This document shows positions 327-62,902 of a stretch of 62,902 nt of DNA, piece by piece. Source of the stretch: a virus. Lineage: Duplodnaviria; Caudoviricetes. The translations under genes were made by a program, and so were the position numbers. The stretch covers positions 1 through 62,902 of IMG/VR virus record IMGVR_UViG_3300034190_001790. One strand, written 5' to 3'. Positions within the stretch are counted from its first letter, which is position 1; each line of letters starts with the position of its first letter. The notes under the pieces are model-generated. The model did no database searches and was not told where the DNA came from. It saw nothing but the letters and a program-made list of their open reading frames with translations.

Positions 327-337
327 TAAAAAAACTT

Positions 338-1219: not shown

Positions 1220-1283
1220 AAAAAATTAGGTTATAATCAAAATTTATTGTAATATTACACACAAATTGAACTAAATATAATAT

Positions 1284-1432: not shown

Positions 1433-1452
1433 ATTAACTTAAATAAAGAATT

Positions 1453-1632: not shown

Positions 1633-1763
1633 TGAAAGAAGTACATGAATTAATTCTTAAAGAAAAACTTAAAGAAAAGCCAAACATCAGGTACATACAA
1701 TGGTTGCAAAAATTAAACGAGGACATTCTCAAGCAAATCATTGTGAACAATTACAAGAAGTAA
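1632..1763 (+). CDS. small hypothetical protein (43 aa, not in ORF track)
   Basis: MKEVHELILKEKLKEKPNIRYIQWLQ...; start overlaps the previous stop. Confidence 0.6.
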   Translation: MKEVHELILKEKLKEKPNIRYIQWLQKLNEDILKQIIVNNYKK

Positions 1764-1792
1764 AGACGAGGAATAATCCTCAATAATTTTAT

Positions 1793-1893
1793 AGGTGTAA
1801 GATACCTTGATATTAAATGTTTTGTCTTTACACTAAGGGAGTGGTTATAAAGGCATAAGCCAACAATACGTTAATACTGTTAGCTGCTCCCTT
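1793..1893 (+). ncRNA. candidate structured intergenic RNA
   Basis: hairpin GGTGTAA-GATA/TGTC-T-TTACACT, then 13-bp stem AAGGGAGTGGTTA/TAGCTGCTCCCTT (G-U pairs) enclosing GGC-ATAA-GCC and AAC-AATAC-GTT. Confidence 0.4.
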
Positions 1894-1914
1894 TAAAAAT
1901 TAAATTAAATAAAA

Positions 1915-2160
1915 ATGAAAAGATTATCTGAATACTTAGTTAACAAACTAAAAGAAGAACAGCATTTAAGGAATTATAATAAAGCAAATAGATTAGACAC
2001 TATCGATCTAAATAAATACTTTAAAGAAACAGATAAAATAGAAATAAAAGGTAGATTTGTATCTGCGTGTAAATACGCATTACCTATACCTGAAAGGGTA
2101 ATAATCAAAAATGATATGAGTAAATATAAATTAATTAAAAGATATGAGTCAAGAAATTGA
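1915..2160 (+). CDS. hypothetical protein
   Basis: 81-aa ORF with A-rich leader (TAAATTAAATAAAAATG). Confidence 0.75.
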   Translation: MKRLSEYLVNKLKEEQHLRNYNKANRLDTIDLNKYFKETDKIEIKGRFVSACKYALPIPERVIIKNDMSKYKLIKRYESRN

Positions 2161-2389
2161 AGTTCCAAAATATTATGTAGGAGACACCTACAGAGAAGGG
2201 TATTACCAAGCAAGGTACGTTGTAGAAGATTTTAATTGCACTTGGAACGTAGGCAATGTTGTTACTTATTGTTTACGAAGTTCTAAAAAACATGAGAGTC
2301 CAATAGAATGCTTGAAAAAATCCATTAACCATCTAAAATTTGAAATAGAAAGGTTAGAAAAATTAGAAAAGAAAAATAAAATTAAATGA
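2144..2389 (+). CDS. DUF3310-like protein (T7 gp1.7-related putative nucleotide kinase)
   Basis: PKYY ... WNVGNVVTYCLRSSKKH ... ECLKKSINHLKFEI resembles the family pattern P.HY..GN..KY..R...K...EDL.KA..YL. Confidence 0.6.
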   Translation: MSQEIEVPKYYVGDTYREGYYQARYVVEDFNCTWNVGNVVTYCLRSSKKHESPIECLKKSINHLKFEIERLEKLEKKNKIK

Positions 2390-2679
2390 AAAGAGAGATA
2401 TTTGATAAGTACGCCACAGCAATAGCCGACAGGTTTCATCTAACTTTAGATGAGATGTTTGCTAAAACAAAAAAAAGAGAAGCAGTAGATGCTAGACAGA
2501 TGTTGTATTTTTTGTCTCGAGAACGTCCAATAAGAATCTCTTATATACAAAAATTTATGGAGGACAATGGGCATATTGTTTCTCATTCAACAATTATTCA
2601 TGGGTACAACATAGCAAAAGAGCATGTCGATAACGATAAAGATTATGCAGAGGTTGTAAGTCAGCTTAAAAATGTATAA
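2386..2679 (+). CDS. stand-alone DnaA domain IV (C-terminal HTH)-like DNA-binding protein
   Basis: KTKKREAVDARQMLYFLSRE ... SHSTIIHG parallels DnaA's R....V.ARQIAMYL.R ... DHTTV.HA. Confidence 0.65.
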   Translation: MKREIFDKYATAIADRFHLTLDEMFAKTKKREAVDARQMLYFLSRERPIRISYIQKFMEDNGHIVSHSTIIHGYNIAKEHVDNDKDYAEVVSQLKNV

Positions 2680-3100
2680 ATTAGAGGACATATATAATCA
2701 GGCATCAAAAGATAGTTCTATGAAAATAGAAAGAAATAATAATGTCAGTTATATAAATGTAGGAGTAAAAATAAGTAAGTATCCAAGTAAAACAGAAATT
2801 TTAAACTGTTCAAAAAACGGAGACTACTTTCAGGAAATAACATCAGACGAGTATAATATGTTTTATAATCGTGGGTGGTATGAAGGCTGCATAATTTTAG
2901 CTATCTCAAACTGCGTTAGAAAGTTAAAGATGATTAAGGTAAAAATGCAGGAAGAAGTAAATCAAAGAAAAAACGATAAGTTTATTAAAAATTTAAAAAC
3001 AAAACGGGAGTTTGTTATGAATAAATATTCTTATTATAGTCAAAAACTAATTAAACTAAATAAAAATGACAAAATTAAAAACAGTAAATATAAAGGGTAA
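2672..3100 (+). CDS. hypothetical protein
   Basis: 142-aa ORF overlapping its neighbours in the operon. Confidence 0.75.
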   Translation: MYKLEDIYNQASKDSSMKIERNNNVSYINVGVKISKYPSKTEILNCSKNGDYFQEITSDEYNMFYNRGWYEGCIILAISNCVRKLKMIKVKMQEEVNQRKNDKFIKNLKTKREFVMNKYSYYSQKLIKLNKNDKIKNSKYKG

Positions 3101-3602
3101 AGAGTATGTTGAAGTACACACAAGATTAAAATACTTTAGATCTAAATACCCACAGTACACCATTGATACCGATACAATAGAAAAAACAGAAGACACTGTA
3201 ATGTTTAAGGCGGTAATTAAAAACGAAGAAGGTAGAATTATAGCTTCAGGACATGCAGAAGAGAGAAGAGGCTCATCATTTATTAATAAGACATCATATG
3301 TAGAAAACTGTGAGACATCAGCATGGGGTAGGGCTCTAGGAAACTTTGGAATAGGTTTAGAGACAGCAGTGTCATCGTATGACGAAGTGGCTAATGCTAT
3401 TAAGAATCAAGAGCCTAAAGTAAAGCCACCAACTAAAACAACTAAATTACAATTAGTTATAGATGATAATAACTGGGATAAGGTTTTGAAGTACATGGCT
3501 CAAAACAAAGCATTAGGGCTAGACAAGTTAGTTAAAAACTTAGAGCAAAAATATTCTATCAAGTCTTCAGTAAAGAAGGAACTTTCAAAACACATTAAAT
3601 AA
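3066..3602 (+). CDS. putative single-strand annealing recombinase (Rad52/Sak-like fold)
   Basis: KGKEYVEVHTRL ... ASGHAEE ... VENCETSAWGRAL..FGIG pattern; sits next to an exonuclease and an SSB-like gene. Confidence 0.6.
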   Translation: MTKLKTVNIKGKEYVEVHTRLKYFRSKYPQYTIDTDTIEKTEDTVMFKAVIKNEEGRIIASGHAEERRGSSFINKTSYVENCETSAWGRALGNFGIGLETAVSSYDEVANAIKNQEPKVKPPTKTTKLQLVIDDNNWDKVLKYMAQNKALGLDKLVKNLEQKYSIKSSVKKELSKHIK

Positions 3603-4366
3603 TGAAAATTCCTTTTAATTACACCGACAAAGTTGTCTCTGAAATTGCAGAAAAACTTAAAGACGACTCTTCATATTATGGGGAGTACGGTAAGCAGTGG
3701 CTATCTAATTCAGATATTAAATTATTATTAGACAACCCAAGAATGTTTGGTAAACCTCAGGAGGAAACAAAAGCCATGTTAGAGGGGAGGTATTTTCATA
3801 CGGCTATATTAGAAAAAGAAAAACTTAAAGACTTTGACATTGTGGAGGTTTCTAGTCGAAATACCAAAGCATATAAAGAACACATAGCACATAATGACAA
3901 TAAAATGTCTCTTCTTAGTCATGAGGCTGAAGCAATAAATGATGTAGTTGACGCAATGCTATGTAATTTAGAAATGTATGATGAAATTTACAAAGACGGA
4001 AACCAATATGAAGTTCCAATGGTTAAAATGATTATGGGATTAAACTGGAAAGGAAAGGCAGACATAGTTTGTAATGATAAGTTGATTGATTTAAAAACTA
4101 CATCAGACATTAACAAGTTTAGATCAAGTGCGTACAGATACAATTATGATAGTCAAGCCTTTATATATCAAGAGTTGTTTGGTTTGCCTTTAGAATTTTA
4201 TGTAGTGGACAAGTCTACTTATCAATTAGCTATATTCAAACCAACAGATGAGTTTGTTCAACATGGAAAAGAAAAAGTTGAAAACGCTATTTTTATTTAC
4301 AACACATATTTCAGTGAAGATTCAGAAGAAAACATAAATCAATTCGTATTGCATGAAACATTATAG
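3602..4366 (+). CDS. PD-(D/E)XK exonuclease (RecE/ExoVIII, DUF3799-like)
   Basis: LSNSDIK, GRYFHTAILE, KGKADIV...IDLKTT, YNYDSQAFIY motifs. Confidence 0.8.
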   Translation: MKIPFNYTDKVVSEIAEKLKDDSSYYGEYGKQWLSNSDIKLLLDNPRMFGKPQEETKAMLEGRYFHTAILEKEKLKDFDIVEVSSRNTKAYKEHIAHNDNKMSLLSHEAEAINDVVDAMLCNLEMYDEIYKDGNQYEVPMVKMIMGLNWKGKADIVCNDKLIDLKTTSDINKFRSSAYRYNYDSQAFIYQELFGLPLEFYVVDKSTYQLAIFKPTDEFVQHGKEKVENAIFIYNTYFSEDSEENINQFVLHETL

Positions 4367-4565
4367 AAATATAATATGGCATAGAAAAATAATTTTTGTT
4401 TTAAAAGTAGTTTATAAGGTAATAAAATATTATCTTTCAAGGCTATCTTGGAAAAGAGAAATATTTATAGTAGAAGTTCCAACTACTATGGAAAACGAAC
4501 AGCAAAAGCAAAAGCTAATGACTGAAGTTTTAGAAATTTTGGAGCAACAAATTAAATTAAAATAA
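4353..4565 (+). CDS. hypothetical protein
   Basis: 70-aa ORF in operon context. Confidence 0.6.
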   Translation: MKHYRNIIWHRKIIFVLKVVYKVIKYYLSRLSWKREIFIVEVPTTMENEQQKQKLMTEVLEILEQQIKLK

Positions 4566-4566
4566 A

Positions 4567-4818
4567 ATGGAAGATAAAATTTATGTGGGCGGTGGTACCG
4601 AAAAGTTTGATGGTAACCTCATTTCTTGTAGTTTATGTTTAAGCGACCTTCCTTCTGAGCATATCTTTGAATATAGCGGAAAGAAATATATTAAACTTAA
4701 TGTGCAAAAGAAAAAGCAAGCTGATGAGTATGGCAAGACTCATTATGTTGCTGTTGACACTTGGAAACCTGAACCCAAGAAAGAAGAAGTTCAAGAAGAA
4801 AAAGACTTGCCTTTCTAA
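4567..4818 (+). CDS. small putative ssDNA-binding protein
   Basis: beta-rich 83 aa ending in the acidic SSB-type tail EEKDLPF; follows the recombination genes. Confidence 0.6.
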   Translation: MEDKIYVGGGTEKFDGNLISCSLCLSDLPSEHIFEYSGKKYIKLNVQKKKQADEYGKTHYVAVDTWKPEPKKEEVQEEKDLPF

Positions 4819-4829
4819 TAATTGTGAAG

Positions 4830-4856
4830 AGGAGGTCGAAAGACCTCCTTTTTTTT
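4830..4856 (+). terminator. intrinsic terminator
   Basis: AGGAGGTC-GAAA-GACCTCCT followed by a T-run. Confidence 0.85.
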
Positions 4857-4867
4857 AATATAATATA

Positions 4868-7255
4868 ATGGAGATAACGATATTTAAAGACATAAAGAAT
4901 ACCTCACAACCTTTTTACAGAAAAGTAGAATTAGTTTTGCACAGAATAGAGCAAGGAAATTCAAAAGACATAGTAAAAAAAATAAGAGCAGAAAAAGATA
5001 AAGAAAAAAGAAATGAATTAAAAAAACTTTTACCAGCAATTTGTTTTAGCGGAAAGTTTACTAAACGTAACGACTCATCACTTATCAAACATAGCGGCTT
5101 AATTTGTTTAGATTTTGATGGCTACAAATCCAACAAAGAGTTATTAGAAGAAAAAGAAAAGTTAGCTAAGAATAAATTTATATTTGCAGTGTTTATCTCA
5201 CCAAGTGGAAAAGGATTAAAAGCTTTAGTTAAGATACCTGAAAACGTAGACAATCATAAAAACTATTTTAATTCTTTAAACAAATACTTTAACTCTCCAT
5301 ATTTTGACACAACATCTAAAAATGTTTCAAGAGTATGTTATGAGAGTTATGATCCATTAATTTTTATAAACCTAACATCAAGTGTATGGGACACTATTGA
5401 CGCACCTGAGTTTGTAGAGTTTAATAAATACAAAGACAAACCAACTATTCCAGTAACAGATGAAAATAAAATTGTAGAGATTTTGTTGAAGTGGTGGGAA
5501 AATAAATATGGATTAGTAGATGGAGAGAGGAATAATAATGTTTACATACTTGCGGCTGCGTTTAACGATTTTGGGGTACCAAAAAATTTAGCTGAATATG
5601 TAATGGGTAATTTTGATAGTAAAGACTTTAGTATCCACGAGATTAAAAGAACAATAGACTCTGCATATGCACAAGTACAAAACTTTGGAACTAAATACTA
5701 CGAAGACGAAGATAAAGTAAATAAAGTAAAGCAACAACTCAGAAGAGGGGTGTCAAAAAAAGAAATCCGATGTCAATTAGAAGACGAAAAAATTGATGTC
5801 GGAGATATTGAAAATGTAATAGTTCGTCTTGAAGAAGAGCAGTCTAATTATAAGTTTTGGACAAAGAATGATAAGGGTGTTATAAAAATAGTCCATATAC
5901 TATTTAAAAATTTTTTAGAGGACAACGGTTTCTATAAGTTTAATCCTGAGGGAAGTAAAAGCTATGTTTTTGTTAGAGTGATAAACAACCTTATCGATCA
6001 CACAACTGAAAAGGAAATTAAAGATTTTGTTTTAAACTATCTTTTATCTGTTGATGATTTGTCTGTGTATAATTACTTTGCTGAACACACTAGATATTTT
6101 AGAGAAGAATTTTTAACCTTATTATCCTCCATAAATGTGTTTTTTATAGCTGACACAAAAGATACAGCTTATTTGTATTACACAAATTGTGCTGTTAAAA
6201 TTACAAAGAATGATATTGTACTTATAGATTACTTAGATTTAGGTGGTTATGTATGGAGAGACCATGTTATTGATAGGTCTTTTACTCTTTGTAAGGTAGG
6301 AGAATGTGATTATAAAACCTTTATATCTAACATTTGTGGTGAAGATAAAAGCAGAATAAACTCCATGGAGTCTACTATTGGTTATTTATTACATGGTTGG
6401 AAAAATTTATCTTATTGTCCAGCAGTAATATTAAATGATGAAGTAATATCTGTAAATCCTGAAGGTGGAACTGGAAAGGGATTGTTTATGAATGGCTTGT
6501 CGCAAATGAAAAAGAATGTCACAATAGACGGAAAAAGTTTTACGTTTGAAAGGTCTTTTGCGTATCAATTAGTTTCTGCGGACACACAAATACTTTGTTT
6601 TGATGACGTAAAAAAATCATTTGATTTTGAAAGACTGTTTAGTGTTATTACTGAGGGATTAACTCTTGAAAAGAAAAATAAAGACGCAATAAAAATACCT
6701 TTTTCAAAGTCTCCTAAAGTAGCTTTGACTACAAACTATGCTATTAAAGGAGAGGGGTCTTCTTTTGAAAGAAGAAAGTGGGAGTTGGAGTTGGCTCAAT
6801 ATTACACTAAAGATTTTACACCACTTGTTGAGTTTGGAAGACTTATGTTTGGAGAGTGGGACGATAATGAGTGGTGTCAGTTTGATAACTACATGATTCA
6901 AAATTTACAAATGTATTTAGAGCATGGAATGTTAAAAAGTGAATTTGTTAATTTAAAGATGAAAAATTTAATAAGAAGCACCGACCATGTGTTTATAGAG
7001 TGGTGCGGAATATTAGGTGGTGGTAAAATTAATGACAAACTAAAGCCTAACAGTAGGATATATAAACCTGACTTATATAAAGACTTTGTTGATGACAACC
7101 CTGACTTTGCACCAAGATCTAAAGATAGTGTTTCAAGAATAAAATTTTATCAGTGGGTAAAAAAATTCTGTTCGTATCATTATAATGTTGAGGCTGAAGA
7201 AGGTAGAGACTTAGGCGGAAGATATTTTGTTTTTAATACAGAAGATGAAGTTTAG
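4868..7255 (+). CDS. primase-helicase (BT4734/VirE N-terminal primase-like domain + SF3/D5-like helicase)
   Basis: KKLLPAICFSG, SGLICLDFD, FISPSGKGLK, GERNN; Walker A GGTGKG, Walker B LCFDD, motif C LTTN. Confidence 0.85.
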   Translation: MEITIFKDIKNTSQPFYRKVELVLHRIEQGNSKDIVKKIRAEKDKEKRNELKKLLPAICFSGKFTKRNDSSLIKHSGLICLDFDGYKSNKELLEEKEKLAKNKFIFAVFISPSGKGLKALVKIPENVDNHKNYFNSLNKYFNSPYFDTTSKNVSRVCYESYDPLIFINLTSSVWDTIDAPEFVEFNKYKDKPTIPVTDENKIVEILLKWWENKYGLVDGERNNNVYILAAAFNDFGVPKNLAEYVMGNFDSKDFSIHEIKRTIDSAYAQVQNFGTKYYEDEDKVNKVKQQLRRGVSKKEIRCQLEDEKIDVGDIENVIVRLEEEQSNYKFWTKNDKGVIKIVHILFKNFLEDNGFYKFNPEGSKSYVFVRVINNLIDHTTEKEIKDFVLNYLLSVDDLSVYNYFAEHTRYFREEFLTLLSSINVFFIADTKDTAYLYYTNCAVKITKNDIVLIDYLDLGGYVWRDHVIDRSFTLCKVGECDYKTFISNICGEDKSRINSMESTIGYLLHGWKNLSYCPAVILNDEVISVNPEGGTGKGLFMNGLSQMKKNVTIDGKSFTFERSFAYQLVSADTQILCFDDVKKSFDFERLFSVITEGLTLEKKNKDAIKIPFSKSPKVALTTNYAIKGEGSSFERRKWELELAQYYTKDFTPLVEFGRLMFGEWDDNEWCQFDNYMIQNLQMYLEHGMLKSEFVNLKMKNLIRSTDHVFIEWCGILGGGKINDKLKPNSRIYKPDLYKDFVDDNPDFAPRSKDSVSRIKFYQWVKKFCSYHYNVEAEEGRDLGGRYFVFNTEDEV

Positions 7256-8474
7256 AGACTATCAGGTAAGTATAATCAACAAAGGTGTTGACGTTTTGTC
7301 CAGAGATAAGTTTTTGTACTTAGCTATGGAGGTAAGAACTGGCAAAACTTTAACCAGTTTAGGTATTGCACAGAGAATGAGTTGCACAGACGTTTTGTTT
7401 TTAACTAAGAAGAAAGCTATATCAAGCATTGAACAGGATTATAAACTATTAAATCCTCATTATAATATTACAGTAATAAATTATGAATCTTTGCACAAGG
7501 TAAAACAAACTGGTTGGAGCCTAGTTGTTTGTGATGAAGCTCATACGTTGGGTGCCTTTCCTAAGCCAAATAAAAGAGCTAAACAAGTAAAAGAAATTTT
7601 AGTTAGATCTAAACCTTATGTTATATTATTAAGCGGAACACCAACTCCTGAATCATACAGTCAAATGTATCACCAGCTGTACGGTATTCCGACAAGTCCT
7701 TTCAGTAAATTTAAAAACTTTTATGCGTTTGCAAAAAAATATGTTTTAGTAAAACAAAGAAAAATAAATGGTATGTTTATTAATGATTACTCAAAAGGAT
7801 TGAAGTCTATATTAGATGATATATCTCCATTTAAAATAAACTACACGCAAAAATCCGCAGGATTCAAAACAGAAACCAACGAAAAAATACTTTATGTAGA
7901 ATTAAGTAGAATTACCAAAGGGTTAATAACTCGTATAAAAAAAGACAGAGTTATAGAGGGTGATGGTGAACTATTACTGGCAGACACTCCAGCAAAGTTA
8001 ATGACTAAAGTGCACCAGCTTTGCTCGGGAACAGTGAAATTTGAAAGCGGAAATGCAATGACAATAGATTTTACTAAAGCAAAATTTATAAAAAAATATT
8101 TTAAAAATAAAAAAATAGCAATATTTTATAAGTTCACTCAAGAGTACAAGGCACTTAAAGAAATATATAAAGATCAGATTACTAACGATTTAGAAGAATT
8201 TAAATATACAGATAAATGTATAGCCTTGCAAATTGTTTCTGGAAGAGAAGGTATAAGTTTGAAGGAGGCATCGTGTTTAGTTTATTACAATATAGATTTT
8301 AGTGCAACATCTTACTGGCAGAGTAGAGATAGAATGACAACAAAAAACAGAACACACAATAATATATTTTGGATTTTTAGTAAAGACGGTATTGAAAACG
8401 ATATATATAAAGCTGTTGTTAAAAAGAAAGATTATACCCTTTCACACTTTAAAAGAGATTTATTAGATTTGTAA
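7245..8474 (+). CDS. SNF2-like superfamily 2 helicase
   Basis: RDYQ Q-motif, EVRTGKT, VCDEAH, LSGTP, GREGISL, QSRDR; start moved to ATG 7245. Confidence 0.85.
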   Translation: MKFRDYQVSIINKGVDVLSRDKFLYLAMEVRTGKTLTSLGIAQRMSCTDVLFLTKKKAISSIEQDYKLLNPHYNITVINYESLHKVKQTGWSLVVCDEAHTLGAFPKPNKRAKQVKEILVRSKPYVILLSGTPTPESYSQMYHQLYGIPTSPFSKFKNFYAFAKKYVLVKQRKINGMFINDYSKGLKSILDDISPFKINYTQKSAGFKTETNEKILYVELSRITKGLITRIKKDRVIEGDGELLLADTPAKLMTKVHQLCSGTVKFESGNAMTIDFTKAKFIKKYFKNKKIAIFYKFTQEYKALKEIYKDQITNDLEEFKYTDKCIALQIVSGREGISLKEASCLVYYNIDFSATSYWQSRDRMTTKNRTHNNIFWIFSKDGIENDIYKAVVKKKDYTLSHFKRDLLDL

Positions 8475-8475
8475 T

Positions 8476-8715
8476 ATGACTGAGCAACAGATACAAAAAA
8501 AACGTATAGCTCAATTAGAAAGCGAGGGCTACTATGTAATAAAGCTTACGGTCACAAACAAAAACGGCATACCTGATCTTATTGCTATTCCCAAAGGATC
8601 AGACGTTTTGTTTTCAGAAGTAAAAAAACCAAAAGGTAAGTTATCTGAGCTGCAAAAATTTAGAATAAAAGAACTTAAAGAACATGGAATTCAGACAGAG
8701 ATATATAGAGGCTAA
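8476..8715 (+). CDS. VRR-NUC domain nuclease (putative Holliday junction resolvase)
   Basis: TEQQIQ ... GIPDLI ... FSEVK ... GKLSELQ. Confidence 0.85.
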   Translation: MTEQQIQKKRIAQLESEGYYVIKLTVTNKNGIPDLIAIPKGSDVLFSEVKKPKGKLSELQKFRIKELKEHGIQTEIYRG

Positions 8716-9010
8716 GGGTTATGATGTAGAAGATTATTTCATGGATAATCTTTCTGAAATGAATTTATATGTAGCATTAAAAATAGCAACTTTTATAGAA
8801 AAAAATTTACAATCTATTGAGGAAACTAAATTATGCTCTAAAGTTTTAGGTGGTTGTGTTGTTAATACTATTGGTGAGCCAATAACTTTTGCTATAGAAA
8901 TGGTTCGTAAAAAAAATTGTTACACTACCTTAACAGACATAACTTTAATAGATATGGACGAGTATTTAGATCTTATGTTATTAGATTGTTATATAAAACC
9001 TGTCAAATAA
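8684..9010 (+). CDS. hypothetical protein
   Basis: 108-aa ORF in operon. Confidence 0.65.
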   Translation: MEFRQRYIEAKGYDVEDYFMDNLSEMNLYVALKIATFIEKNLQSIEETKLCSKVLGGCVVNTIGEPITFAIEMVRKKNCYTTLTDITLIDMDEYLDLMLLDCYIKPVK

Positions 9011-9033
9011 TTAGGAGAATTCAATTATTTTTT

Positions 9034-9041
9034 TATATTTG
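9034..9041 (+). promoter_or_regulatory. Bacteroidota -7 box (TATATTTG)
   Basis: intergenic TAnnTTTG ending 16 nt upstream of ATG 9058. Confidence 0.6.
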
Positions 9042-9057
9042 ATTAAATCAAGTATAA

Positions 9058-9249
9058 ATGCCACGAGTAGCCCCAGAAGATATTTCAACCATATCACATA
9101 TTAAGTATGTAAGCGAAAGTATTCATGACTTTGGAGACTGCTTGTATGAGGATTTAATGGAGAGAGATCATGAAGAGGCTAAAAAAAATGCTCAAAAGCT
9201 AATAAAAGTATTGGCTGATCTAATTCAATCCCTATCCGATGAAATCTAA
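9058..9249 (+). CDS. hypothetical protein
   Basis: 63-aa helical ORF downstream of a promoter box. Confidence 0.7.
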   Translation: MPRVAPEDISTISHIKYVSESIHDFGDCLYEDLMERDHEEAKKNAQKLIKVLADLIQSLSDEI

Positions 9250-10342
9250 TAAAGAGTACGGCAAAAGACTAAGGTTATCTCCTGAAGAAGTTGACTATAT
9301 ATTACAAAAAAGAGCAACTAATCTAGACAATATAAATAACAATACCGCTTTAGATATGCATTGCGAAGAGCGAGGTATAGATAAAAAAGATATAGTTAGT
9401 GTTAAGCATTGGCAAAGCGGGAGCGGAGAGTATAGGTTTTCTATTGTAACTAAGGAAAATTTAGGATTAGATGAAAAACAATTGTTTGGAAAAGTAAATG
9501 ACTTTATATCTAATTACTCTCCAGATTATGTTCCTCTTAAAAACTACAGAGAACGTAAGGATGGTCACTTACTGGTTATAAATCCAGCTGATATACATAT
9601 AGGAAAGTATGCTAATGAAAGGGAAACCAATCAAGAGTATAATAATGACATAGCCGTAGCAAGAGTTATGGAAGGTGTTAAGGGACTTATAGATAAGGCA
9701 AAGGGTTTTGATATAGACAGGGTGTTGTTTTGTATTGGAAATGATGTACTTCATATAGACAATGTATATTCAACTACTACTAAAGGCACTTATCAGGATA
9801 CAGATGGAAAGTGGTGGGAGCATTACGAAATAGCCTTAATGTTATACGTAAAGTGCGTAGAGATGTTAAGAAGAATTGCTCCAGTAGATGTTCTTCATAG
9901 TATGAGTAACCATGATTATCAGTCTGGCTATCATTTAGCACATACATTAAAAAGTTGGTTTAGAAAAGCATCTGACGTTACTTTTGATATCAGTGTATCA
10001 CATCGTAAATACTACCAGTATGGAAGTAATTTAATAGGACTAGAGCATGGTGATGGTGCAAAAATGGTTAATTTACCTTTGTTAATGGCACAGGAGAAAC
10101 CTTTACTCTGGTCGGCAACTACACACAGGTATTTTTATTTACATCACATACATCACAAAGTAAAACATAAGTGGTTAGACGCTAAAGATTACATTGGTGT
10201 TACCGTTGAATACATGAGAAGTCCATCATCATCTGATAGTTGGCACTCACGCAAAGGATTTACTGGAGCTCCATTAGCATGCGAAGGTTTTATCCATAGT
10301 AAATTATCAGGGCAAGTAGCCCGTTTAACACATTATTTTTAA
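9239..10342 (+). CDS. calcineurin-like metallophosphoesterase
   Basis: DIHIG, GND, SNHD, HGD and HHIH metal-binding motifs in the canonical order. Confidence 0.85.
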   Translation: MKSNKEYGKRLRLSPEEVDYILQKRATNLDNINNNTALDMHCEERGIDKKDIVSVKHWQSGSGEYRFSIVTKENLGLDEKQLFGKVNDFISNYSPDYVPLKNYRERKDGHLLVINPADIHIGKYANERETNQEYNNDIAVARVMEGVKGLIDKAKGFDIDRVLFCIGNDVLHIDNVYSTTTKGTYQDTDGKWWEHYEIALMLYVKCVEMLRRIAPVDVLHSMSNHDYQSGYHLAHTLKSWFRKASDVTFDISVSHRKYYQYGSNLIGLEHGDGAKMVNLPLLMAQEKPLLWSATTHRYFYLHHIHHKVKHKWLDAKDYIGVTVEYMRSPSSSDSWHSRKGFTGAPLACEGFIHSKLSGQVARLTHYF

Positions 10343-56329: not shown

Positions 56330-56770
56330 ATGCTAAATACAGATAATAACTACCTTAAATACTGGAGGGTAGTGAGATTTTGGGTAAAAGCCAAACACAA
56401 TCTAAGTACGCCTGAGCTAGAAATGCTGCTATTTTTATATAGTGAAGAGTATTTTAATAAAACAAAGTTTCGTGAGTTTGAAGAGTTGATGTCTTGGGAT
56501 GTTAACAGGTTTGATAGCCTATTAAAAAATGGGTGGATTAAGGTGTGGAGAAAAAAATCAGGCAAGTATGCTACTCTATACGAGCTTTCCTACAAAGGGA
56601 AGCGAGTCGTTGCAACAATTTACAAAAAGTTAAGTGGTGAAGAGATAGCTGAGTCAGCAAATGTCAATCCTTTATTTAGGTTTGATGCTACATATATGCA
56701 AAAAATTTATCGTAACTCTATAAAGAAAATGAACGACTTTATAAAACAACAACGACATCTCTCTCAGTAA
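56330..56770 (+). CDS. MarR-like winged-helix DNA-binding protein
   Basis: LSTPELEMLLFLY ... LLKNGWIKVWR ... LYELSYKGK wing pattern; lone + strand gene in the - arm. Confidence 0.65.
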   Translation: MLNTDNNYLKYWRVVRFWVKAKHNLSTPELEMLLFLYSEEYFNKTKFREFEELMSWDVNRFDSLLKNGWIKVWRKKSGKYATLYELSYKGKRVVATIYKKLSGEEIAESANVNPLFRFDATYMQKIYRNSIKKMNDFIKQQRHLSQ

Positions 56771-57485: not shown

Positions 57486-59102
57486 TTAATCATCACTTTG
57501 TCCTTGTCTTTTGTGGGTGATAATAGCATTGGTACTTAATATTGTTGTGGCTACACTTACAGCATTAAGCAAAGCGTTTTTGGTAACCTTTAATGGATCA
57601 ATAATTCCCAACTTAAACATATCGCCATACTTTTCGTTCTTTACATCAAACCCATAATTATATTTATTAGTATACACATGCTCCATAATCCATGCTACAT
57701 CAATGTCAGCATTTTTACATATTTGATTTATTGGAGCTTGTAAGGCTGAAGCTAATATGAGTCTAGCAATATTTGCATTCTCCTTGTTGTCCATAGTCGA
57801 TTTGTTTAACAAGGCTATTGACTCTCTAAGTAATGACAGTCCTCCACCAGCAATTATTCCTTCATCAAGTGCTGACCTTACTGCACACACAGAGTCATCT
57901 ACTCTATCATACAATTCTTTTTGTTCTACATCAGAATTACCTCCTACATATATACAACCTATTGCTCCTGCTAAACTAGCTATACGCTCATTAATAAAAT
58001 CACGCTCATGCTTTATTGTTGTATTCTCTTGTTGTATCTTTAACTCATCAATACGTTTTTGTGTTTCTTCTGGTTTTTCGTCAGTCTTAAATATTATTGT
58101 ACTTTCATTATTACTAACAATTTTGTCAGCATAGCCTAAGTCTTCCATTCTAATTAAACTAAGATCATCACCAGTTTTCTCACTAAAGAACTTTGCGTTA
58201 ACGGCAAATGCTATATCGCTCATAAGCTCAGTTGACTTGTATCCAAAATTAGGTGGTATTATATTACAGAACTTTAATCCATTACGAACAACATTAGCAG
58301 CTAAAGTATTTATAACATTGCCATGACATGGGCCTATAATTAAAAGCTTGTCATTATTTTGTATAATAGGTTTTAATACATTCTCTATTTGCAACACACT
58401 ACTTATCTCTGCATCACAAACTAATATCTTAACTCCTTCTAAAACACACTCGTCTTTCTTTTGGTTATTAATAAACATATTGGAAGTGTATCCCCTAGCT
58501 ACTTTAATACCGTTTGTAACCTCAGCGTATGTTTCTGATGTCATAGAGTTCTCCACTGTAACAATACCGTTAACGCCTACTTGAGTATAGGCGTCAGCTA
58601 TTATCTTTCCAATTTCCTTATCATTGTTTGCAGATATACAAGCAACATCTAATAGTCTAGACTCATTTACCTTTTTAGACTTAACTGTTAAGTTATGTAT
58701 TATTTTTTCTATACACTTATTTATACATCTTATTATTTCAGCTACATTACTTCCCTTCTCAATATACTCTTGTCCTGCCTTTACTATAGCTTCAGTTAAA
58801 ACAATAGCAGTTGTTGTACCATCACCAGCTGTGTTAGCTGTACGACCAGCTGCATCCTTCATCATTTGTATGGCTAAGTTTTCTATAGGGTCATCTAAGA
58901 ATACAGACTGTGCTACAGTAACTCCGTCTTTAGTTATAGTAATCCCTTGTAAATGATCGGCAGATTCTATAAGCACAGTTTTACCTAAAGGGCCTAATGT
59001 GCTCTTTACGGCTTTTGAAATTTTTGTTATTCCTTGAATTAATTTGTGGCGAGCTTCATCGTCAAACGACAAGTCCTTTGGTATGTATCCCTGAGATTTC
59101 AT
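57486..59102 (-). CDS. groEL: chaperonin GroEL (Cpn60)
   Basis: STLGPLG, ITKDGVTVA, AGDGTTTA, IIAGGG, GIIDPLKVTK; no GGM tail; -7 box at 59129-59136. Confidence 0.95.
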   Translation of the reverse strand: MKSQGYIPKDLSFDDEARHKLIQGITKISKAVKSTLGPLGKTVLIESADHLQGITITKDGVTVAQSVFLDDPIENLAIQMMKDAAGRTANTAGDGTTTAIVLTEAIVKAGQEYIEKGSNVAEIIRCINKCIEKIIHNLTVKSKKVNESRLLDVACISANNDKEIGKIIADAYTQVGVNGIVTVENSMTSETYAEVTNGIKVARGYTSNMFINNQKKDECVLEGVKILVCDAEISSVLQIENVLKPIIQNNDKLLIIGPCHGNVINTLAANVVRNGLKFCNIIPPNFGYKSTELMSDIAFAVNAKFFSEKTGDDLSLIRMEDLGYADKIVSNNESTIIFKTDEKPEETQKRIDELKIQQENTTIKHERDFINERIASLAGAIGCIYVGGNSDVEQKELYDRVDDSVCAVRSALDEGIIAGGGLSLLRESIALLNKSTMDNKENANIARLILASALQAPINQICKNADIDVAWIMEHVYTNKYNYGFDVKNEKYGDMFKLGIIDPLKVTKNALLNAVSVATTILSTNAIITHKRQGQSDD

Positions 59103-59125
59103 AAAAGTAAATTTAATTTAATTAA

Positions 59126-59369
59126 TGACAAATATAACAATAATTATTATATGACAAGTGGCAGAGTTAAATTTAGTTTTTAGGCTTTTATAACAATTTT
59201 ATTTTTTCTTTTTTTTATTTTATTTTATTTTGACTACTAAAAGTCTGTCATAAAAATATAATATAAATATAAATAGCTGATAATAAATAAGTTATAGTAA
59301 ATTATATAAACAAAAAGGTCTGGCAAAAGTCTGTCATAAGTCTGTCATTAACTGTCATTTACTTGTCAT
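59126..59369. repeat. iteron-like TGTCA(T) array around an AT-rich core (candidate replication origin)
   Basis: TG(T/G)CA at 59321, 59332, 59343, 59353, 59364 (10-11 bp spacing) and 59246; inverted TGACA at 59126 and 59152; IHF-consensus match at 59270-59282. Confidence 0.6.
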
Positions 59370-59373
59370 ATAC

Positions 59374-59404
59374 AAAAAAAAAGAGAAAACTATATGTCTT
59401 CTCT
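59374..59404 (-). terminator. intrinsic terminator
   Basis: on -: AGAGAAGAC-ATATA-GTTTTCTCT followed by a T-run. Confidence 0.7.
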
Positions 59405-59437
59405 CTTTCACTACTAATCAAACTAAACGGGATCTCT

Positions 59438-59653
59438 TTAATACTCGTATATATCTCTGTCATTATTCATTCGCATCTTAGCTCTCTCAATACCATCAGC
59501 TATACAATCTATTTTGTATTGCTTTTTCATTTGCTTTCTATACATTGATGCTTGCTCAATTCCTGTAACGCCGTCAGGGCGTCCATTAATTAACCTTCCG
59601 TCCTTAACGTATAGGCCATTTACATAATCTGAAGTGTTACTGTTGTATTCCAT
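59438..59653 (-). CDS. hypothetical protein, first gene of the - arm
   Basis: ATG 59653 (MEYNSNTSDYVNGLYVKDGRLING...); TATCTTTA -7 variant upstream, terminator downstream. Confidence 0.65.
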   Translation of the reverse strand: MEYNSNTSDYVNGLYVKDGRLINGRPDGVTGIEQASMYRKQMKKQYKIDCIADGIERAKMRMNNDRDIYEY

Positions 59654-59699
59654 GACTTTTTTTTGTAAAGATAATAAAAATATATTACACATTTAGAGG

Positions 59700-60065
59700 T
59701 TGAGGATAATACTACACTACACGGCAAACTCGCAAAATTTTAAAACGCTTTTTTTTACTAGGGGGGGTACTAGATTTGGCTGACGCACTCGGATTTTTTT
59801 GGCTTTTTGTTTTCATCTGGCTGCGTCCAGTGTCGTACTGGCGGCGTCCAGCATCGCCCACGCTCCACGCTCCGAATCGCTGCGGATTCAGGTGGATTCT
59901 CCCCTCCATTACCCCACATTCCGCTAGATATGAGAGCATAAGAAACAATGATCATCGTTTTTAAGGACAAAGAACTGCGTCTTTATACCCCTCCGAACTG
60001 CACAAATAGTAAACAAAACGCAGTGAAACACGCCGCTGTAAGTGATTGATACTCAGCATATTAAA
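59700..60065. other. GC-rich non-coding divergence region (candidate genome end/packaging region)
   Basis: visibly GC-rich, G7 tract at 59761-59767, short repeats and hairpins, IHF-consensus match at 60039-60051, lies between the two divergent arms. Confidence 0.5.
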
Positions 60066-60082
60066 AAATAGTTGTGTATTTA

Positions 60083-60115
60083 TTTGTTTTATAATAATTT
60101 ATTTATATATATTTG
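60083..60115 (+). promoter_or_regulatory. early promoter, Bacteroidota -33 TTTG / -7 TATATTTG
   Basis: TTTG at 60083-60086, 21-nt spacer, TATATTTG at 60108-60115, upstream of the first early gene. Confidence 0.75.
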
Positions 60116-60145
60116 CACATAAATCAAACAAAAATTAAACAAATT

Positions 60146-60325
60146 ATGACTAGAGAAATCACTACCGAATGGACGTTAAACGAGTTAACAACACTAAGAA
60201 TGATTATCGCAGATAGAATTAGAGAAATGAGAGACAATAATATTGACTACGATACTCCTGAAATGAGAGGACTACAAACCAAGATAACCTTGATGCACGA
60301 AGATATGGTTTTTGATAACATCTAA
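60146..60325 (+). CDS. early hypothetical protein
   Basis: ATG 60146 after an AATTAAACAAATT leader (the track's TTG 60113 lies inside the promoter box). Confidence 0.7.
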   Translation: MTREITTEWTLNELTTLRMIIADRIREMRDNNIDYDTPEMRGLQTKITLMHEDMVFDNI

Positions 60326-60333
60326 CCTTATCC

Positions 60334-60392
60334 TACTCCTAGTGGCTCATAGTTAATCGCTATGGGCTTTTCTAGGTAGAGGAATAATCCTC
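60334..60392 (+). ncRNA. conserved intergenic stem-loop motif, copy 1
   Basis: TACTCCTAG-TG-GCTCATAGT-(TAATC)-GCTATGGGC-TTTT-CTAGG-TAGA plus hairpin GAGGA-ATAA-TCCTC. Confidence 0.7.
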
Positions 60393-60415
60393 GACTAATT
60401 AAACAAACAAACATT

Positions 60416-60703
60416 ATGAATATAACAAAAGTTGATATCCTCACTAGAGTAGACCAAAAATTAGGTACAGAATTACTAGATAAGTTTTACTCAGTAAACA
60501 TGAGTTCAGGAATAGAATGCAGAATACAAGGAAAATTCTCTCCTGATTTAGTATTAGAATTGAATGAAAAACTAGGTATAGACCCATACAATGATAACCC
60601 ATGGGAAGTTGACGAGGGTGGCTTTGTTAATCTATCATTCGTTCTTATATCTGCTATATCAGGATGTAATGACAAGGTTAATCTAGAGATTACTCTTGCA
60701 TAA
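60416..60703 (+). CDS. early hypothetical protein
   Basis: 95 aa, leader AATTAAACAAACAAACATT. Confidence 0.75.
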   Translation: MNITKVDILTRVDQKLGTELLDKFYSVNMSSGIECRIQGKFSPDLVLELNEKLGIDPYNDNPWEVDEGGFVNLSFVLISAISGCNDKVNLEITLA

Positions 60704-60711
60704 ACCTAGCA

Positions 60712-60771
60712 TACTCCTAGTGCCTCAATGCTCATCGCATTGGGGTTTTCTAGGTAGAAGACAATAGTGTC
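60712..60771 (+). ncRNA. conserved intergenic stem-loop motif, copy 2
   Basis: TACTCCTAG-TG-CCTCAATGC-(TCATC)-GCATTGGGG-TTTT-CTAGG-TAGA plus hairpin GACA-ATAG-TGTC; compensatory changes relative to copy 1. Confidence 0.7.
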
Positions 60772-60791
60772 ATAATTAAACAAACAAACAA

Positions 60792-61082
60792 ATGAGTACA
60801 TATAAAGTTAGAGATACACAATTCGGTAAAGACTTTGATAAGCCGATGAACATCAACGGCAGAGATGCCAACAAAGGATGGTACAATCTTGTACTATCTA
60901 TTGCCGAATTAAAGATGTATATCAGAGGATTAAAACCACATAGAAACTACACTCTCAAAGGTGTGAAAGCATACTTTGGATTAGATATGTTTAAGTACAA
61001 CAAGCATGAGTTGTTAAACTGCCTAGAATCGTTCAAGAGACAGCTTGAGGATTATAATGGCATGGACACTCAAAGCGAATAG
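60792..61082 (+). CDS. early hypothetical protein
   Basis: 96 aa, same A/C-rich leader; its TAG stop overlaps the ribozyme start. Confidence 0.8.
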   Translation: MSTYKVRDTQFGKDFDKPMNINGRDANKGWYNLVLSIAELKMYIRGLKPHRNYTLKGVKAYFGLDMFKYNKHELLNCLESFKRQLEDYNGMDTQSE

Positions 61083-61135
61083 ATACTCTGATGAGGACTC
61101 AATGTCCGAAACGAGCAGCAATGCTCGTCAGTATC
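61082..61135 (+). ncRNA. type I hammerhead ribozyme
   Basis: stem I GATACT/AGTATC; core CTGATGA at 61088-61094; stem II GGAC-TCAAT-GTCC; GAAA at 61108-61111; stem III CGAGCA-GCAA-TGCTCG; GTC cleavage triplet ending at 61129. Confidence 0.95.
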
Positions 61136-61161
61136 ATAAGATACCAATTAAAACAAACAAA

Positions 61162-61395
61162 ATGAAAAAATCAAATTATGCATCAGTATTATATACTTGC
61201 TACGAGTTAAGTAAGAACAATGTTCTTGGAGTAACTTATGAAGAATCTAAGTGTCCTGAATCATTAGACAGAAGTACACCTGAATCACACAGCATTGAGA
61301 TACTTAAGCTAACCTTAAACAATGATGATGTGACAGAAAAGTTAGAGGGAATATGGGAGGAGATTATAGAACACATTGCTAACGAAAACAATTAG
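61162..61395 (+). CDS. early hypothetical protein
   Basis: ATG 61162 (MKKSNYASV...) with the typical leader; the track's longer start runs through the ribozyme. Confidence 0.7.
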   Translation: MKKSNYASVLYTCYELSKNNVLGVTYEESKCPESLDRSTPESHSIEILKLTLNNDDVTEKLEGIWEEIIEHIANENN

Positions 61396-61399
61396 AATC

Positions 61400-61876
61400 A
61401 TGAGAAAAAAATATATAGTTATCGATACATGGAACGGAGATGGATATTCTTCAGAAAATGGAGTAGATACAAAACAATTCGCATACAAAAAATCAGCATT
61501 CAAATGGGCTTATAAAAGAGCATTGAGCAATGCTGATGGAGATGCAAAATATGTAACAAGATACTCTGATGAGTATGCACAAATAGACAAGGGAGCAGAG
61601 GGAGACGGATATTTTTTTGATAGTTATGACGATAATTGTGGTAGCTATCAAGTATGGGAGTTAAAAGATGCATATGCGTTTGTGATTCTATGTAATGTAA
61701 ATGATTGTGCAATGCTCACAAAGGAACAATTTGAAGAGCAAACAAAATCGTTAGATGATGAATACGGAGAGGATTTAGAAGAGAATTCACATACAGAAGA
61801 GAATGGAGATAAATTTTATAATTCTCTTGTTGATGACTACGATTATCAATTTAGACTAATTAGTAACTTAAAATAA
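61400..61876 (+). CDS. acidic early hypothetical protein
   Basis: ATG 61400 (MRKKYIVIDTWNGDGYS...), Asp/Glu-rich C-terminal half. Confidence 0.75.
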   Translation: MRKKYIVIDTWNGDGYSSENGVDTKQFAYKKSAFKWAYKRALSNADGDAKYVTRYSDEYAQIDKGAEGDGYFFDSYDDNCGSYQVWELKDAYAFVILCNVNDCAMLTKEQFEEQTKSLDDEYGEDLEENSHTEENGDKFYNSLVDDYDYQFRLISNLK

Positions 61877-61881
61877 ATAAA

Positions 61882-62094
61882 ATGGCATACAATGAATTCG
61901 ATGAATTAGAAAAAAATATTCAGCATTGGTACTACACATATCAAACCATACACAAAAAGATCTCGAGTAGTGTTTTTAAATCTTGCTCTAAAGATGAGTA
62001 CAACCAGTATGAAAATGCGATTGCTAAATTAAAAGAAGTAAAGAAGAAGTACGGAACTATAGATATTACAGATATAAAAGATTTACATCGTTAA
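61882..62094 (+). CDS. early hypothetical protein
   Basis: 70-aa helical ORF. Confidence 0.7.
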   Translation: MAYNEFDELEKNIQHWYYTYQTIHKKISSSVFKSCSKDEYNQYENAIAKLKEVKKKYGTIDITDIKDLHR

Positions 62095-62110
62095 TTTGTG
62101 TTTGTTTGTT

Positions 62111-62155
62111 CTGCGAGATGCCTCACTATGAAAGTAGTGGGGATTTCGTGGTACA
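62111..62155 (+). ncRNA. conserved intergenic stem-loop motif, copy 3 (divergent)
   Basis: CTGCGAGA-TG-CCTCACTAT-(GAAA)-GTAGTGGGG-A-TTTCGTGG-TACA. Confidence 0.6.
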
Positions 62156-62183
62156 AGACAAATATTAATTAAAATTAAATAAA

Positions 62184-62387
62184 ATGAAAGCAAATCAATT
62201 ATTAAAATTTCTGCAAGATGTAGAACAACAAGTAAATTCTTATGGAAGAACTTTGGAAGATGTTGAAGTAAACTTTAGGAGAAGTGATGATTCTGACATT
62301 GAACAAACAGATTTCGTAGGGGTGGATTTATTTGATGAAGAATCAAATAAAATAGTAGAGAGTATAGTAATAATGGGTAAATATTAA
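62184..62387 (+). CDS. acidic early hypothetical protein
   Basis: 67 aa with A-rich leader. Confidence 0.75.
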   Translation: MKANQLLKFLQDVEQQVNSYGRTLEDVEVNFRRSDDSDIEQTDFVGVDLFDEESNKIVESIVIMGKY

Positions 62388-62397
62388 ATTAAATAAA

Positions 62398-62902
62398 ATG
62401 GGATACAATACAGATTGGAACGGACAATTAAAAACTAATAGAGCATTCACTACACAAGAATTAATAGAATGGGAAGTAATAGTTGAAGAGAGACATGATG
62501 ATGAATTTAAATACGGAGACGAAAGAAGAGAGTTTCCATCAATATGGTGTGGATTTGAGATTAAAAACATTACTGATGATTCAGGAACTTATGGAGTATT
62601 TAGATGGATGGGTCATGAGAAGACATATCAGGGCAAAGAATGGACAATATTCTTTTTGCAAAAATGTATGGAATGGAGCCATAATGAAGAAATATATGCA
62701 GAGGGTGTTTTGGAATGGAGAGGAGATGAAGAGGATGATATGGGGGCTCTTGTAATTGAAAAAGCAAGTGACTTAGATGACGAGGGAGCCATGATGATGA
62801 TGCATATAGAAAAGGTGGAATTTTCCTACAAAAGAGAGAAGACTGCATATATATATGATGCAAAAAAAAGAGGATATAAAGTTCTTAAATCAAATGTGCG
62901 TT
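62398..62902 (+). CDS. acidic early hypothetical protein running off the window end (not in ORF track)
   Basis: ATG 62398 (MGYNTDWNGQLKTNRAFT...) stays open for 168 codons to the last base. Confidence 0.8.
   Translation, partial: MGYNTDWNGQLKTNRAFTTQELIEWEVIVEERHDDEFKYGDERREFPSIWCGFEIKNITDDSGTYGVFRWMGHEKTYQGKEWTIFFLQKCMEWSHNEEIYAEGVLEWRGDEEDDMGALVIEKASDLDDEGAMMMMHIEKVEFSYKREKTAYIYDAKKRGYKVLKSNVR

Follow-up and report, generated by a model that had tools for sequence, protein, structure and literature searches.

In the early region of phage T7, one host-polymerase transcript carries RNase III sites at irregular hairpins with an internal loop between the cistrons. Clustered hammerhead ribozymes in phage operons are already published (PMC3088659): the passages of Perreault et al. 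2011 that deal with these prophage elements describe cleavage of polycistronic transcripts of about 2 kb in vitro and propose processing into gene-length mRNAs. A 2019 review (PMC6765202), in its part on bacteria and phages, still calls the role of such hammerheads largely elusive. Here we analyze the early genes of the IMG/VR virus record IMGVR_UViG_3300034190_001790 (Duplodnaviria; Caudoviricetes). The window, meaning the whole stretch of DNA analyzed, is the full record (62,902 bp), which is classed as a linear sequence with a completeness of about 98%. Near its right end, on the + strand, lie eight small genes (g1 to g8), and the long spacers between them hold a hammerhead and three copies of a second element that we call the bipartite hairpin (BH). 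The arrangement suggests an early message that is cut or ended one gene at a time, and we put at about even the chance that hammerhead and BH together act as RNA-level punctuation, giving each cistron its own mRNA ends. The interest lies in the alternation of BH with hammerheads; processing and attenuation are the competing roles for BH.

The seven spacers from g1 to g8 measure 90, 88, 79, 4, 5, 89, and 10 nt, with structure in the four long ones and none in the three short ones. All four long spacers fold well below shuffled sequences, with z between −3.6 and −7.4 (90-nt spacer, −4.56; 88-nt spacer, −4.33; 89-nt spacer, −7.42), and a 61-nt repeat of 79% identity is common to the 90- and 88-nt spacers. 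The initial annotation had stated that the long spacers hold a stem-loop or a hammerhead and the short ones nothing, and the folds, the repeat, and a hammerhead descriptor confirm it. Its further statement that one conserved stem-loop is involved holds for the first two copies, BH1 and BH2, which lie in the 61-nt repeat; the element in the 89-nt spacer is a sequence variant and not a plain repeat.

The element between g3 and g4 is, by the sequence features of its family, a genuine type I hammerhead (61082-61135, + strand), identified by descriptor, fold, and 56 distinct covarying relatives. Stem I is open-ended and pairs 61082-61087 with 61130-61135 (6 bp). The core CUGAUGA at 61088-61094 matches C3-U4-G5-A6-N7-G8-A9 and is followed by stem II with its loop (61095-61107; 4 bp, the pair adjoining the core being G-C). 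GAAA at 61108-61111 supplies G12-A13-A14 and then A15.1, which pairs with U16.1. Stem III (61112-61127) has six contiguous pairs, or 7 bp counting A15.1-U16.1, and a GCAA loop of the GNRA type. The UC at 61128-61129 provides U16.1 and H17, with cleavage predicted between 61129 and 61130. The core, the GAAA, A15.1-U16.1 and H17 elements, and all three helices (II and III closed by loops, I open) are therefore present in one sequence, and the minimum free energy (MFE) fold of 61075-61140 gives the three-way junction of a hammerhead. Over both strands of the window the descriptor matches once; it matches in 0 of 200 Markov simulations with the strict core and in 1 of 100 with N7 free, a chance expectation of about 0.01 per window. 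The hammerhead proposed earlier for this position thus stands, with a complete core, complete helices, and covarying relatives. Self-cleavage would be expected here by analogy with the family, for which the chemistry is known.

The stem II sequence was found by an IMG/VR scan in 24 stretches, many of them in contigs that are about 60 kb long and encode phage GroEL as well. When 49 loci were fetched by phage GroEL alone, 17 of them contained hammerheads, 24 in all, every one on the early strand, opposite GroEL. All oriented related IMG/VR loci together yield 56 distinct hammerheads, without exception on the early strand. They were found with a pairing descriptor that imposes at least 3-4 pairs per stem by construction, and they show 25, 15, and 42 different 5′ strands for stems I, II, and III, respectively, with covariation in all three. 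All four bases occur at position 7 and either C or A at position 17. Most copies have a 6-bp stem I (42 of 56) and a 4-bp stem II (44 of 56); these tight lengths may reflect a tertiary contact between stem I and loop II. The placement between genes is equally narrow. The first ATG lies 9-33 nt beyond the cleavage site in 56/56 copies (median 24.5), and the upstream stop codon lies −4 to +10 nt from the core in 40 of the 42 copies with an upstream open reading frame (ORF), the other 14 being copies for which no such ORF was found. Related loci compared with the window are given L-numbers, of which L004 and L028 denote the same contig, the closest relative of the window. Several of these loci carry arrays, with five hammerheads in L027, four in L019, and two to three in others.

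A small AUAA-loop hairpin (61131-61144, + strand), seen in folds, re-uses the 3′ strand of stem I; after cleavage, only 1 nt would precede it in the g4 mRNA. The same hairpin on the stem I 3′ strand is found in 3 of the 56 hammerheads (the window, L028, and L017). As a separate observation, an exact 14-nt copy of the 5′ part of the hammerhead (stem I strand plus core) occurs at 61560-61573 as in-frame coding sequence within g5. The chance of such a repeat within 3 kb is roughly 0.015, and the copy could be a cassette remnant or an alternative pairing partner for the cleaved 5′ end.

The remaining long spacers hold BH, and on sequence and predicted fold the three window hairpins are members of one family. 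From 5′ to 3′ the motif consists of a short arm, 1-8 free bases, an inner hairpin, UUUU or AUUU at the stem, a 5-nt arm, and UA; the inner stem is 9-10 bp of GC type with basal pairs C-G, C-G, U.G, and C-G. BH1 (60338-60392, + strand) has its 5′ arm at 60338-60342, the inner hairpin at 60344-60367, UUUU at 60368-60371, the arm CUAGG at 60372-60376, and then UA and a small AUAA-loop hairpin (60379-60392). BH2 (60716-60771, + strand) is laid out in the same way, with a 5′ arm at 60716-60720, inner hairpin at 60722-60745, UUUU at 60746-60749, CUAGG at 60750-60754, UA, and a small AUAG-loop hairpin at 60760-60771. BH3 (62098-62165, + strand) forms a long interrupted helix, in which the 5′ arm occupies 62111-62119, an inner hairpin with a GAAA loop 62121-62142, AUUU 62143-62146, the arm CGUGG 62147-62151, and UA 62152-62153. 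Predicted folding energies are −25.8, −25.2, and −33.1 kcal/mol for BH1, BH2, and BH3, and the MFE helices extend over about 21, 17, and 30 bp, each bulged at the U-run. A covariance model (CM R1) was built from GGUGG/CGUGG-type copies whose stem has 9 bp and whose loop has 4 nt. BH3 scores 54.9 bits with it, as a member of the training set; BH1 (14.3 bits, E = 0.09) and BH2 (12.8 bits, E = 0.28) rank third and fourth over the whole window with these weak scores, and no further credible copy appears there.

At least 98 distinct copies of BH were gathered from viral contigs. Within this collected set the inner hairpin is 21-24 nt long in 77 of 98 copies, and the 3′ arm reads GGUGG in 73, CGUGG in 16, CUAGG in 4, and CGCAG in 2. 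The third pair is a U.G wobble in 69/98, and 87/98 contain at least one G.U, which argues for a structure in the sense-strand RNA rather than in duplex DNA. Double changes are found at 5 of the 9 pairs of the inner helix (37 same-length copies). The outer arms covary as CCUAG/CUAGG (BH1, BH2, and their L004 counterparts), CUGUG/CGCAG (L029 and L059), CUGCG/CGUGG (BH3), and CCACC/GGUGG, and in the L004 counterpart of BH3 a G-to-A change converts an outer-arm U.G into U-A. Five contiguous outer pairs are present in 19 of the 28 copies of the first set, compared with 13.0 for permuted flanks (P = 0.0025) and 6.1 for random flanks. We rest the outer helix on the compensatory arm variants and not on this pairing statistic, which is clear in the 28 copies and weak in the pooled 98. 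A small tetraloop hairpin with an AUAA, AUAG, or AUAU loop follows 18 of the 28 copies, as opposed to 25% of random 23-mers, and its stems covary; a hairpin of this type also comes after the hammerhead of the window. All 28 lie on the early strand. Separately, the 14-nt small hairpin behind BH1 recurs exactly at 1768-1781, right behind a stop codon on the same arm; there it sits in a structured spacer of 151 nt (1764-1914) with no BH in front.

The 3′ motif of BH was found by an IMG/VR scan in at least 120 stretches, and the inner hairpin accompanies it in 73 of the 98 distinct ones among the matches listed. A more specific pattern gave 3 stretches only when one genome each of 185,579 bacterial and archaeal species was searched, and all 3 are in contigs of metagenome-assembled genomes with two copies or a phage-like context. 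From this near-absence from bacterial genomes we conclude that BH is a phage element and not a common type of host terminator. An ATG follows within 0-42 nt of 93 of the 98 collected copies. The proteins encoded downstream are diverse, the largest cluster having 6 members, and for that reason a role as gene-specific operator was rejected. BH matches no Rfam family, and no paper naming hammerheads or BH in Cellulophaga or Flavobacterium phages was found in the literature searched, where the supplementary hammerhead alignments of Perreault et al. 2011 may list relatives. As far as Rfam and the literature searched show, the BH motif appears undescribed. The suggestion of an undescribed system in this region therefore applies to BH, whereas processing of transcripts by hammerheads had already been proposed, as the passages of PMC3088659 cited above state. 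The hammerhead of the window is a further, new example of that published kind.

BH and hammerheads fill the same slot, from the stop codon to the short A-rich leader of the next gene. Among 31 related early arms the spacers are mostly <35 nt, and those that are longer contain a hammerhead, BH, another stable hairpin, or a host-type promoter motif. One gene family, of 121-130 aa, shows the slot content switching: upstream of it L029 has a hammerhead, L043 has BH, and L040, L044, L045, and L064 have a plain GC hairpin that lacks a U-run. Three further gene clusters have both hammerhead and BH neighbors. Among 58 loci selected by BH, 9 hold hammerheads, and all 13 of those hammerheads are on the BH strand; same-strand co-occurrence is thus seen in two independently selected sets of loci. 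The view that ribozyme and hairpin are interchangeable processing cassettes stands as far as the shared slot and the swap of content among relatives go; cutting at the hairpins remains putative. Two further observations concern the plain hairpins. The early arms of L044, L045, L064, and L040 contain a repeated 7-bp GC stem with a GNRA-like loop and conserved flanks, 4-5 per arm and without a U-run, and L051 has 6-7 copies of a short GC hairpin with a conserved GUCAGUUACAAA tail, again without a U-run.

The cassettes are also better conserved than some of the genes that they separate. Three spacers are 90-91% identical between the window and L004, with nucleotide identities of 87% for g1, 57% for g2, and 74% for g3, and g7 is present in the window and absent from L004 exactly behind BH3. 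The same hammerhead cassette follows g3 in the window and the g8 homolog in L017, and in a relative, represented by an RNA-library contig, unrelated sequence lies upstream of the hammerhead. The spacer conservation and the g7 indel fit the proposal that repeated cassettes serve as recombination points for early genes.

We infer the following course for how the promoter is used, how hammerhead and BH are cleaved in vivo and by what enzyme, and how expression is affected. Host RNA polymerase would read the early/replication unit (60146 to the end, then 1-10342) from the promoter at 60083-60115. Self-cleavage of the hammerhead would fall between 61129 and 61130 and would leave the stem III hairpin, with a cyclic phosphate, at the 3′ end of the g3 message, and the g4-g6 message would start with a 5′-OH, one free base, and the small hairpin, 32 nt before the AUG. 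A 5′-terminal hairpin is a classical mRNA stabilizer. BH would form mRNA ends without catalysis of its own, through an endoribonuclease, of the cell or of the phage, that cuts at the junction of UUUU and arm or close to it, and it may also, or instead, block 3′ exonucleases; the small hairpin behind it would shield the new 5′ end. The predicted outcome is a set of unit mRNAs (g1; g2; g3; g4-g6; g7 onward) whose stability and translation are uncoupled, with the conserved cassettes doubling as homology patches for the swapping of early genes. Processing or protection by BH is favored because the arm pairs across the U-run, the hairpin length is fixed, and a small hairpin follows, and because the slots of sister phages hold ribozymes or non-terminator hairpins and the motif is nearly absent from host genomes. 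Cleavage by RNase III is possible for bulged helices with a predicted length of 17-30 bp. That BH is a dedicated RNA-cutting module, either a new self-cleaving class or the target of a specific endoribonuclease, swapped freely with hammerheads in marine Flavobacteriia-type phages, is a bolder proposal that we consider rather unlikely. The initial annotation had also called the transcript the first to be injected, for which the data offer no support.

Several results weigh against punctuation of the message by these elements. The Rfam hammerhead models give no score at gathering over the whole window or at E ≤ 10 over 3.3 kb and 106 nt, and RF00163 finds nothing in the whole record; a putative explanation is the shortness of the type I model, which has 45 positions. 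(Rfam as a whole gives 0 matches in the window at gathering, and searches by E-value returned only chance snoRNA and miRNA-like matches.) No contact between stem I and loop II was found when a pseudoknot partner for loop II was sought by eye. For BH, the figures on conservation arise partly by construction, the set having been collected by patterns and pairing filters, and over the pooled 98 copies outer pairing is 5.79 compared with 5.13 in composition-matched shuffled flanks. BH also looks like a terminator, with a GC-rich stem base and a directly adjoining U-run in 96 of the 98 collected copies. No RNase gene was found among the 36 window proteins scanned with Pfam, which include 18 of the 51 listed ORFs. 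Finally, sequence of the window phage and of a relative at 90-95% identity is present in oligo-dT RNA libraries (four RNA runs with small shares were found), where the material consists of assembled contigs in which no transcript ends can be read. Run X18 contributed no contigs. Run X19 has two contigs of the relative that extend across the cleavage site of the hammerhead (61079-61165). These represent uncut RNA or DNA carried into the library and weigh weakly against complete cleavage.

The resemblance to terminators leads to the alternative that we take most seriously, although we would not expect it to be correct: BH copies may be leaky intrinsic terminators, or attenuators, that set up a falling gradient g1 > g2 > g3 or an antitermination switch, with the hammerhead as a separate insulator and the conserved tail after the U-run traveling with the cassette by descent. 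Apart from the C-G, C-G, U.G, C-G base and the abutting U-run, such a role is in keeping with the GAAA tetraloop in 24 of the 37 copies with a 9-bp stem and 4-nt loop and with the location of all copies on the sense strand just behind stop codons. A textbook terminator with eight T's also occupies a similar slot on the same arm (4826-4853). However, a terminator scan (at least 5 T in 8) that calls this sequence calls none of the three window BH copies, in which the U's number only four (or AUUU), a number that is fixed. The 3′ arm beyond the U-run is nearly invariant and covaries with the 5′ arm, and termination needs neither property. The U-run is base-paired in BH3, L063, and L031b, the equivalent slots of sister phages contain hammerheads or hairpins without a U-run, and BH is almost absent from bacterial genomes. 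Moreover, no host-type promoter motif follows until 9034, and three efficient terminators would starve the replication genes.

The other explanations appear less probable still. If the cassettes acted mainly at the DNA level, as homology patches for shuffling early genes with little RNA function, one would have the divergent g2 and g3 between well-conserved spacers, the g7 indel, and the two changed upstream neighbors of the hammerhead described above, as well as a precedent in the PeSL elements, as far as the account in PMC4122927 covers them. Conserved G.U wobbles, compensatory changes, and strict strand bias nevertheless point to selection on RNA, and the hammerhead core is intact in 56 diverged copies; recombination use and RNA function are compatible in any case, and a purely DNA-level role seems improbable to us. 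More improbable again is that BH is itself a new small self-cleaving RNA, the slot always holding a ribozyme of some class. BH shares slot, strand, and contigs with hammerheads, is phage-specific and outside the Rfam families, and has about 15 nearly invariant nucleotides around the helix junction, and new ribozyme classes have been found through such neighborhoods, according to the relevant part of PMC6765202. Its fold, on the other hand, is a simple interrupted hairpin whose loops vary freely, no pseudoknot or conserved unpaired core is seen beyond UUUU and UA, and other phages have plain GC hairpins in the slot. We give hardly any credence to N4-style hairpin promoters for an injected virion RNA polymerase, with one transcript start per spacer. 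The idea draws on the presence of a crAss-type muzzle homolog and a 2508-aa protein of unknown function in this phage, and on the crAss-like Cellulophaga phage phi14:2, whose early genes are read by a virion polymerase, as stated in the portion of bioRxiv 10.1101/2020.03.07.982082 that treats them. It was rejected because the D[FY]DxD motif is missing from all 7 of the largest proteins, neither PDB sequences nor Pfam polymerases match the 2508-aa protein, and in L140 only 1 nt separates the motif from the start codon, too little for a transcription start. In addition, the G.U pairs favor RNA over template-DNA hairpins, and a host-type promoter stands before g1. In our view elements that form RNA ends occupy the slot, and for BH processing or protection competes with leaky termination.

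The genes between these elements are all on the + strand and are ORFans from g1 through g7. Gene g1 (60146-60325, 59 aa) has 81% aa identity in L004, and g2 (60416-60703, 95 aa) has 36% aa identity and the 57% nt identity given above to its L004 counterpart. The last base of the stop codon of g3 (60792-61082, 96 aa) is the first base of hammerhead stem I. Genes g4 (61162-61395, 77 aa), g5 (61400-61876, 158 aa), and g6 (61882-62094, 70 aa) are closely packed, and g7 (62184-62387, 67 aa) is the gene absent from L004, where the g8 homolog directly follows BH3. Gene g8 (62398-62902, at least 168 aa) is open at the contig end, with 69% aa identity in L004 and 52% in L017. None of the eight products reaches a Pfam cut-off, and PHROG matches are to only two families of unknown function.

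The promoter in front of g1 (60083-60115, + strand) consists of a −33 element TTTG (60083-60086), a 21-nt spacer, and a −7 element TATATTTG (60108-60115), and the start codon lies 31 nt beyond the −7 element. We take TTTG-N21-TATATTTG to be the Bacteroidetes primary-sigma pattern. In its strict form the pattern occurs three times on the + strand of the window and not at all on the − strand. The host-type promoter proposed before the small genes agrees with this pattern and is kept at the same place in L028; L062 has a similar one. An E. coli-type promoter scan makes no call at 60083-60115. Apart from a motif at 59771, no other intergenic host-type promoter motif was found on the + arm before 9034, and TAnnTTTG is absent from all four long spacers; promoters of another type on this arm are possible.

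The + strand carries the genes from 60146 up to the right end and those from 13 to 10342, and the − strand carries all those at 10501-59692 except one (56330-56770, +). The + arm encodes a DnaA-type helix-turn-helix protein, a PDDEXK nuclease, a primase, and an SNF2-type helicase, and from this content we regard it as the early/replication arm. The − arm encodes a P22-like portal, the crAss-type muzzle homolog, tail proteins, and phage GroEL. In L004, the g8 homolog is followed about 1.3 kb later by homologs of the first two genes of the window; the arm order is the same across the contig junction, and both ends of the window therefore belong to one arm. The early operon, described at first as one of eight genes, is accordingly longer, running off the contig end and continuing at 1-10342 with replication genes. 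When the contig ends are joined (62902 / 1-2), the g8 frame closes with a TGA, and position 13 has the next ATG. At the 62902/1 junction L004 contains two ORFs in about 1.3 kb, and the window may lack this piece or carry a deletion. The primase gene starts 15 nt beyond the terminator at 4826-4853 (12-bp stem, GAAA loop, eight T's), and no host-type promoter motif follows the terminator; primase expression therefore needs read-through or another promoter type. Two long spacers of the + arm, 1219-1452 (233 nt; −35 kcal/mol) and 2680-3065 (386 nt), have strong predicted structure and no Rfam match. In the early arm of L065, a tRNA-like sequence was noted by eye only in the spacer before the ORF at 16169 of the oriented locus.

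Between the divergent arms lies a G+C-rich non-coding stretch (59700-59990) with a near-tandem 19-nt repeat (59817-59835 / 59838-59856) and, on the + strand at 59771, a TAGATTTG motif. It is 86% identical in L004 and conserved only in part in L029 and L059. A 266-nt contig, the deepest of three, covers exactly 59712-59977 in two oligo-dT RNA libraries of one sample. Candidate functions of the stretch are a non-coding RNA, an origin, and a packaging site.

Comparison of the portal protein places podophages of Flavobacterium, Cellulophaga, Maribacter, and Tenacibaculum (47-48% identity) nearest among cultured phages, and an uncultured freshwater record is nearer (68%). At least 95% of the sampled words of the window are present in 14 of the searched runs, which are labeled marine, seawater, estuary, sediment, or plain metagenome. 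Megablast of 58000-62902 against cultured phages gave no match, and blastn of the hammerhead and BH3 spacers against them gave only noise (E ≥ 0.2). MW202828 and Flavobacterium phage elemoB, the nearest GenBank entries by portal and GroEL, contain no hammerhead and no true BH in the 25 kb around GroEL.

These phages form a natural comparison, in that the same slot before related or unrelated early genes holds a hammerhead, a phage-only BH, or a plain hairpin. If BH is cleaved, its function would define the purpose of the ribozyme as well, namely end formation and the uncoupling of cistrons, and BH would count as a new RNA element that is abundant in marine phages. The strategy of looking next to known ribozymes, which lies behind the recent self-cleaving classes, makes BH a ready candidate. 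If BH instead proves to be a terminator, ribozymes and attenuators would be alternative ways to partition a phage early operon.

Compared with the RNase III sites of T7, whose helix spans about two turns, BH is likewise predicted to form an irregular hairpin with an internal loop between early cistrons, and a cut on its 3′ side would leave a protective 3′ hairpin. The BH1 and BH2 helices are shorter, however (about 15-21 bp), cleavage of BH is putative, and the 3′ tail is conserved in sequence (UUUU, a GGUGG-type arm, and UA), which RNase III does not require. BH resembles Rho-independent terminators in its GC-rich stem with U's directly after it; it differs in the U-run fixed at four, in the conserved downstream arm that pairs back across that run, and in its rarity in bacteria. 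The PeSL of T4-type phages, in the passages of PMC4122927 that concern them, are similar as small conserved intergenic cassettes among small genes of early or hyperplastic regions and as borders of indels and replacements, which here correspond to the divergent g2 between 91%-identical spacers and the g7 indel behind BH3. A PeSL is a stem-loop joined to an early promoter, whereas the BH and hammerhead spacers contain no host-type promoter motif. The closest parallel is with the hammerheads of Perreault et al., as far as they are described in the relevant passages of PMC3088659. Both sets have a canonical core, lie between co-directional phage genes with several per operon (here in the relatives), and have the same proposed role, the cutting of long phage transcripts into gene-length mRNAs. 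The elements described here differ in being type I; their stem I, about 6 bp long, begins at the stop codon, and cleavage lies 9-33 nt before the AUG. They also give no Rfam score, belong to marine podophages of the Flavobacteriia type with genomes of about 60 kb, and alternate with a motif that is not a hammerhead.

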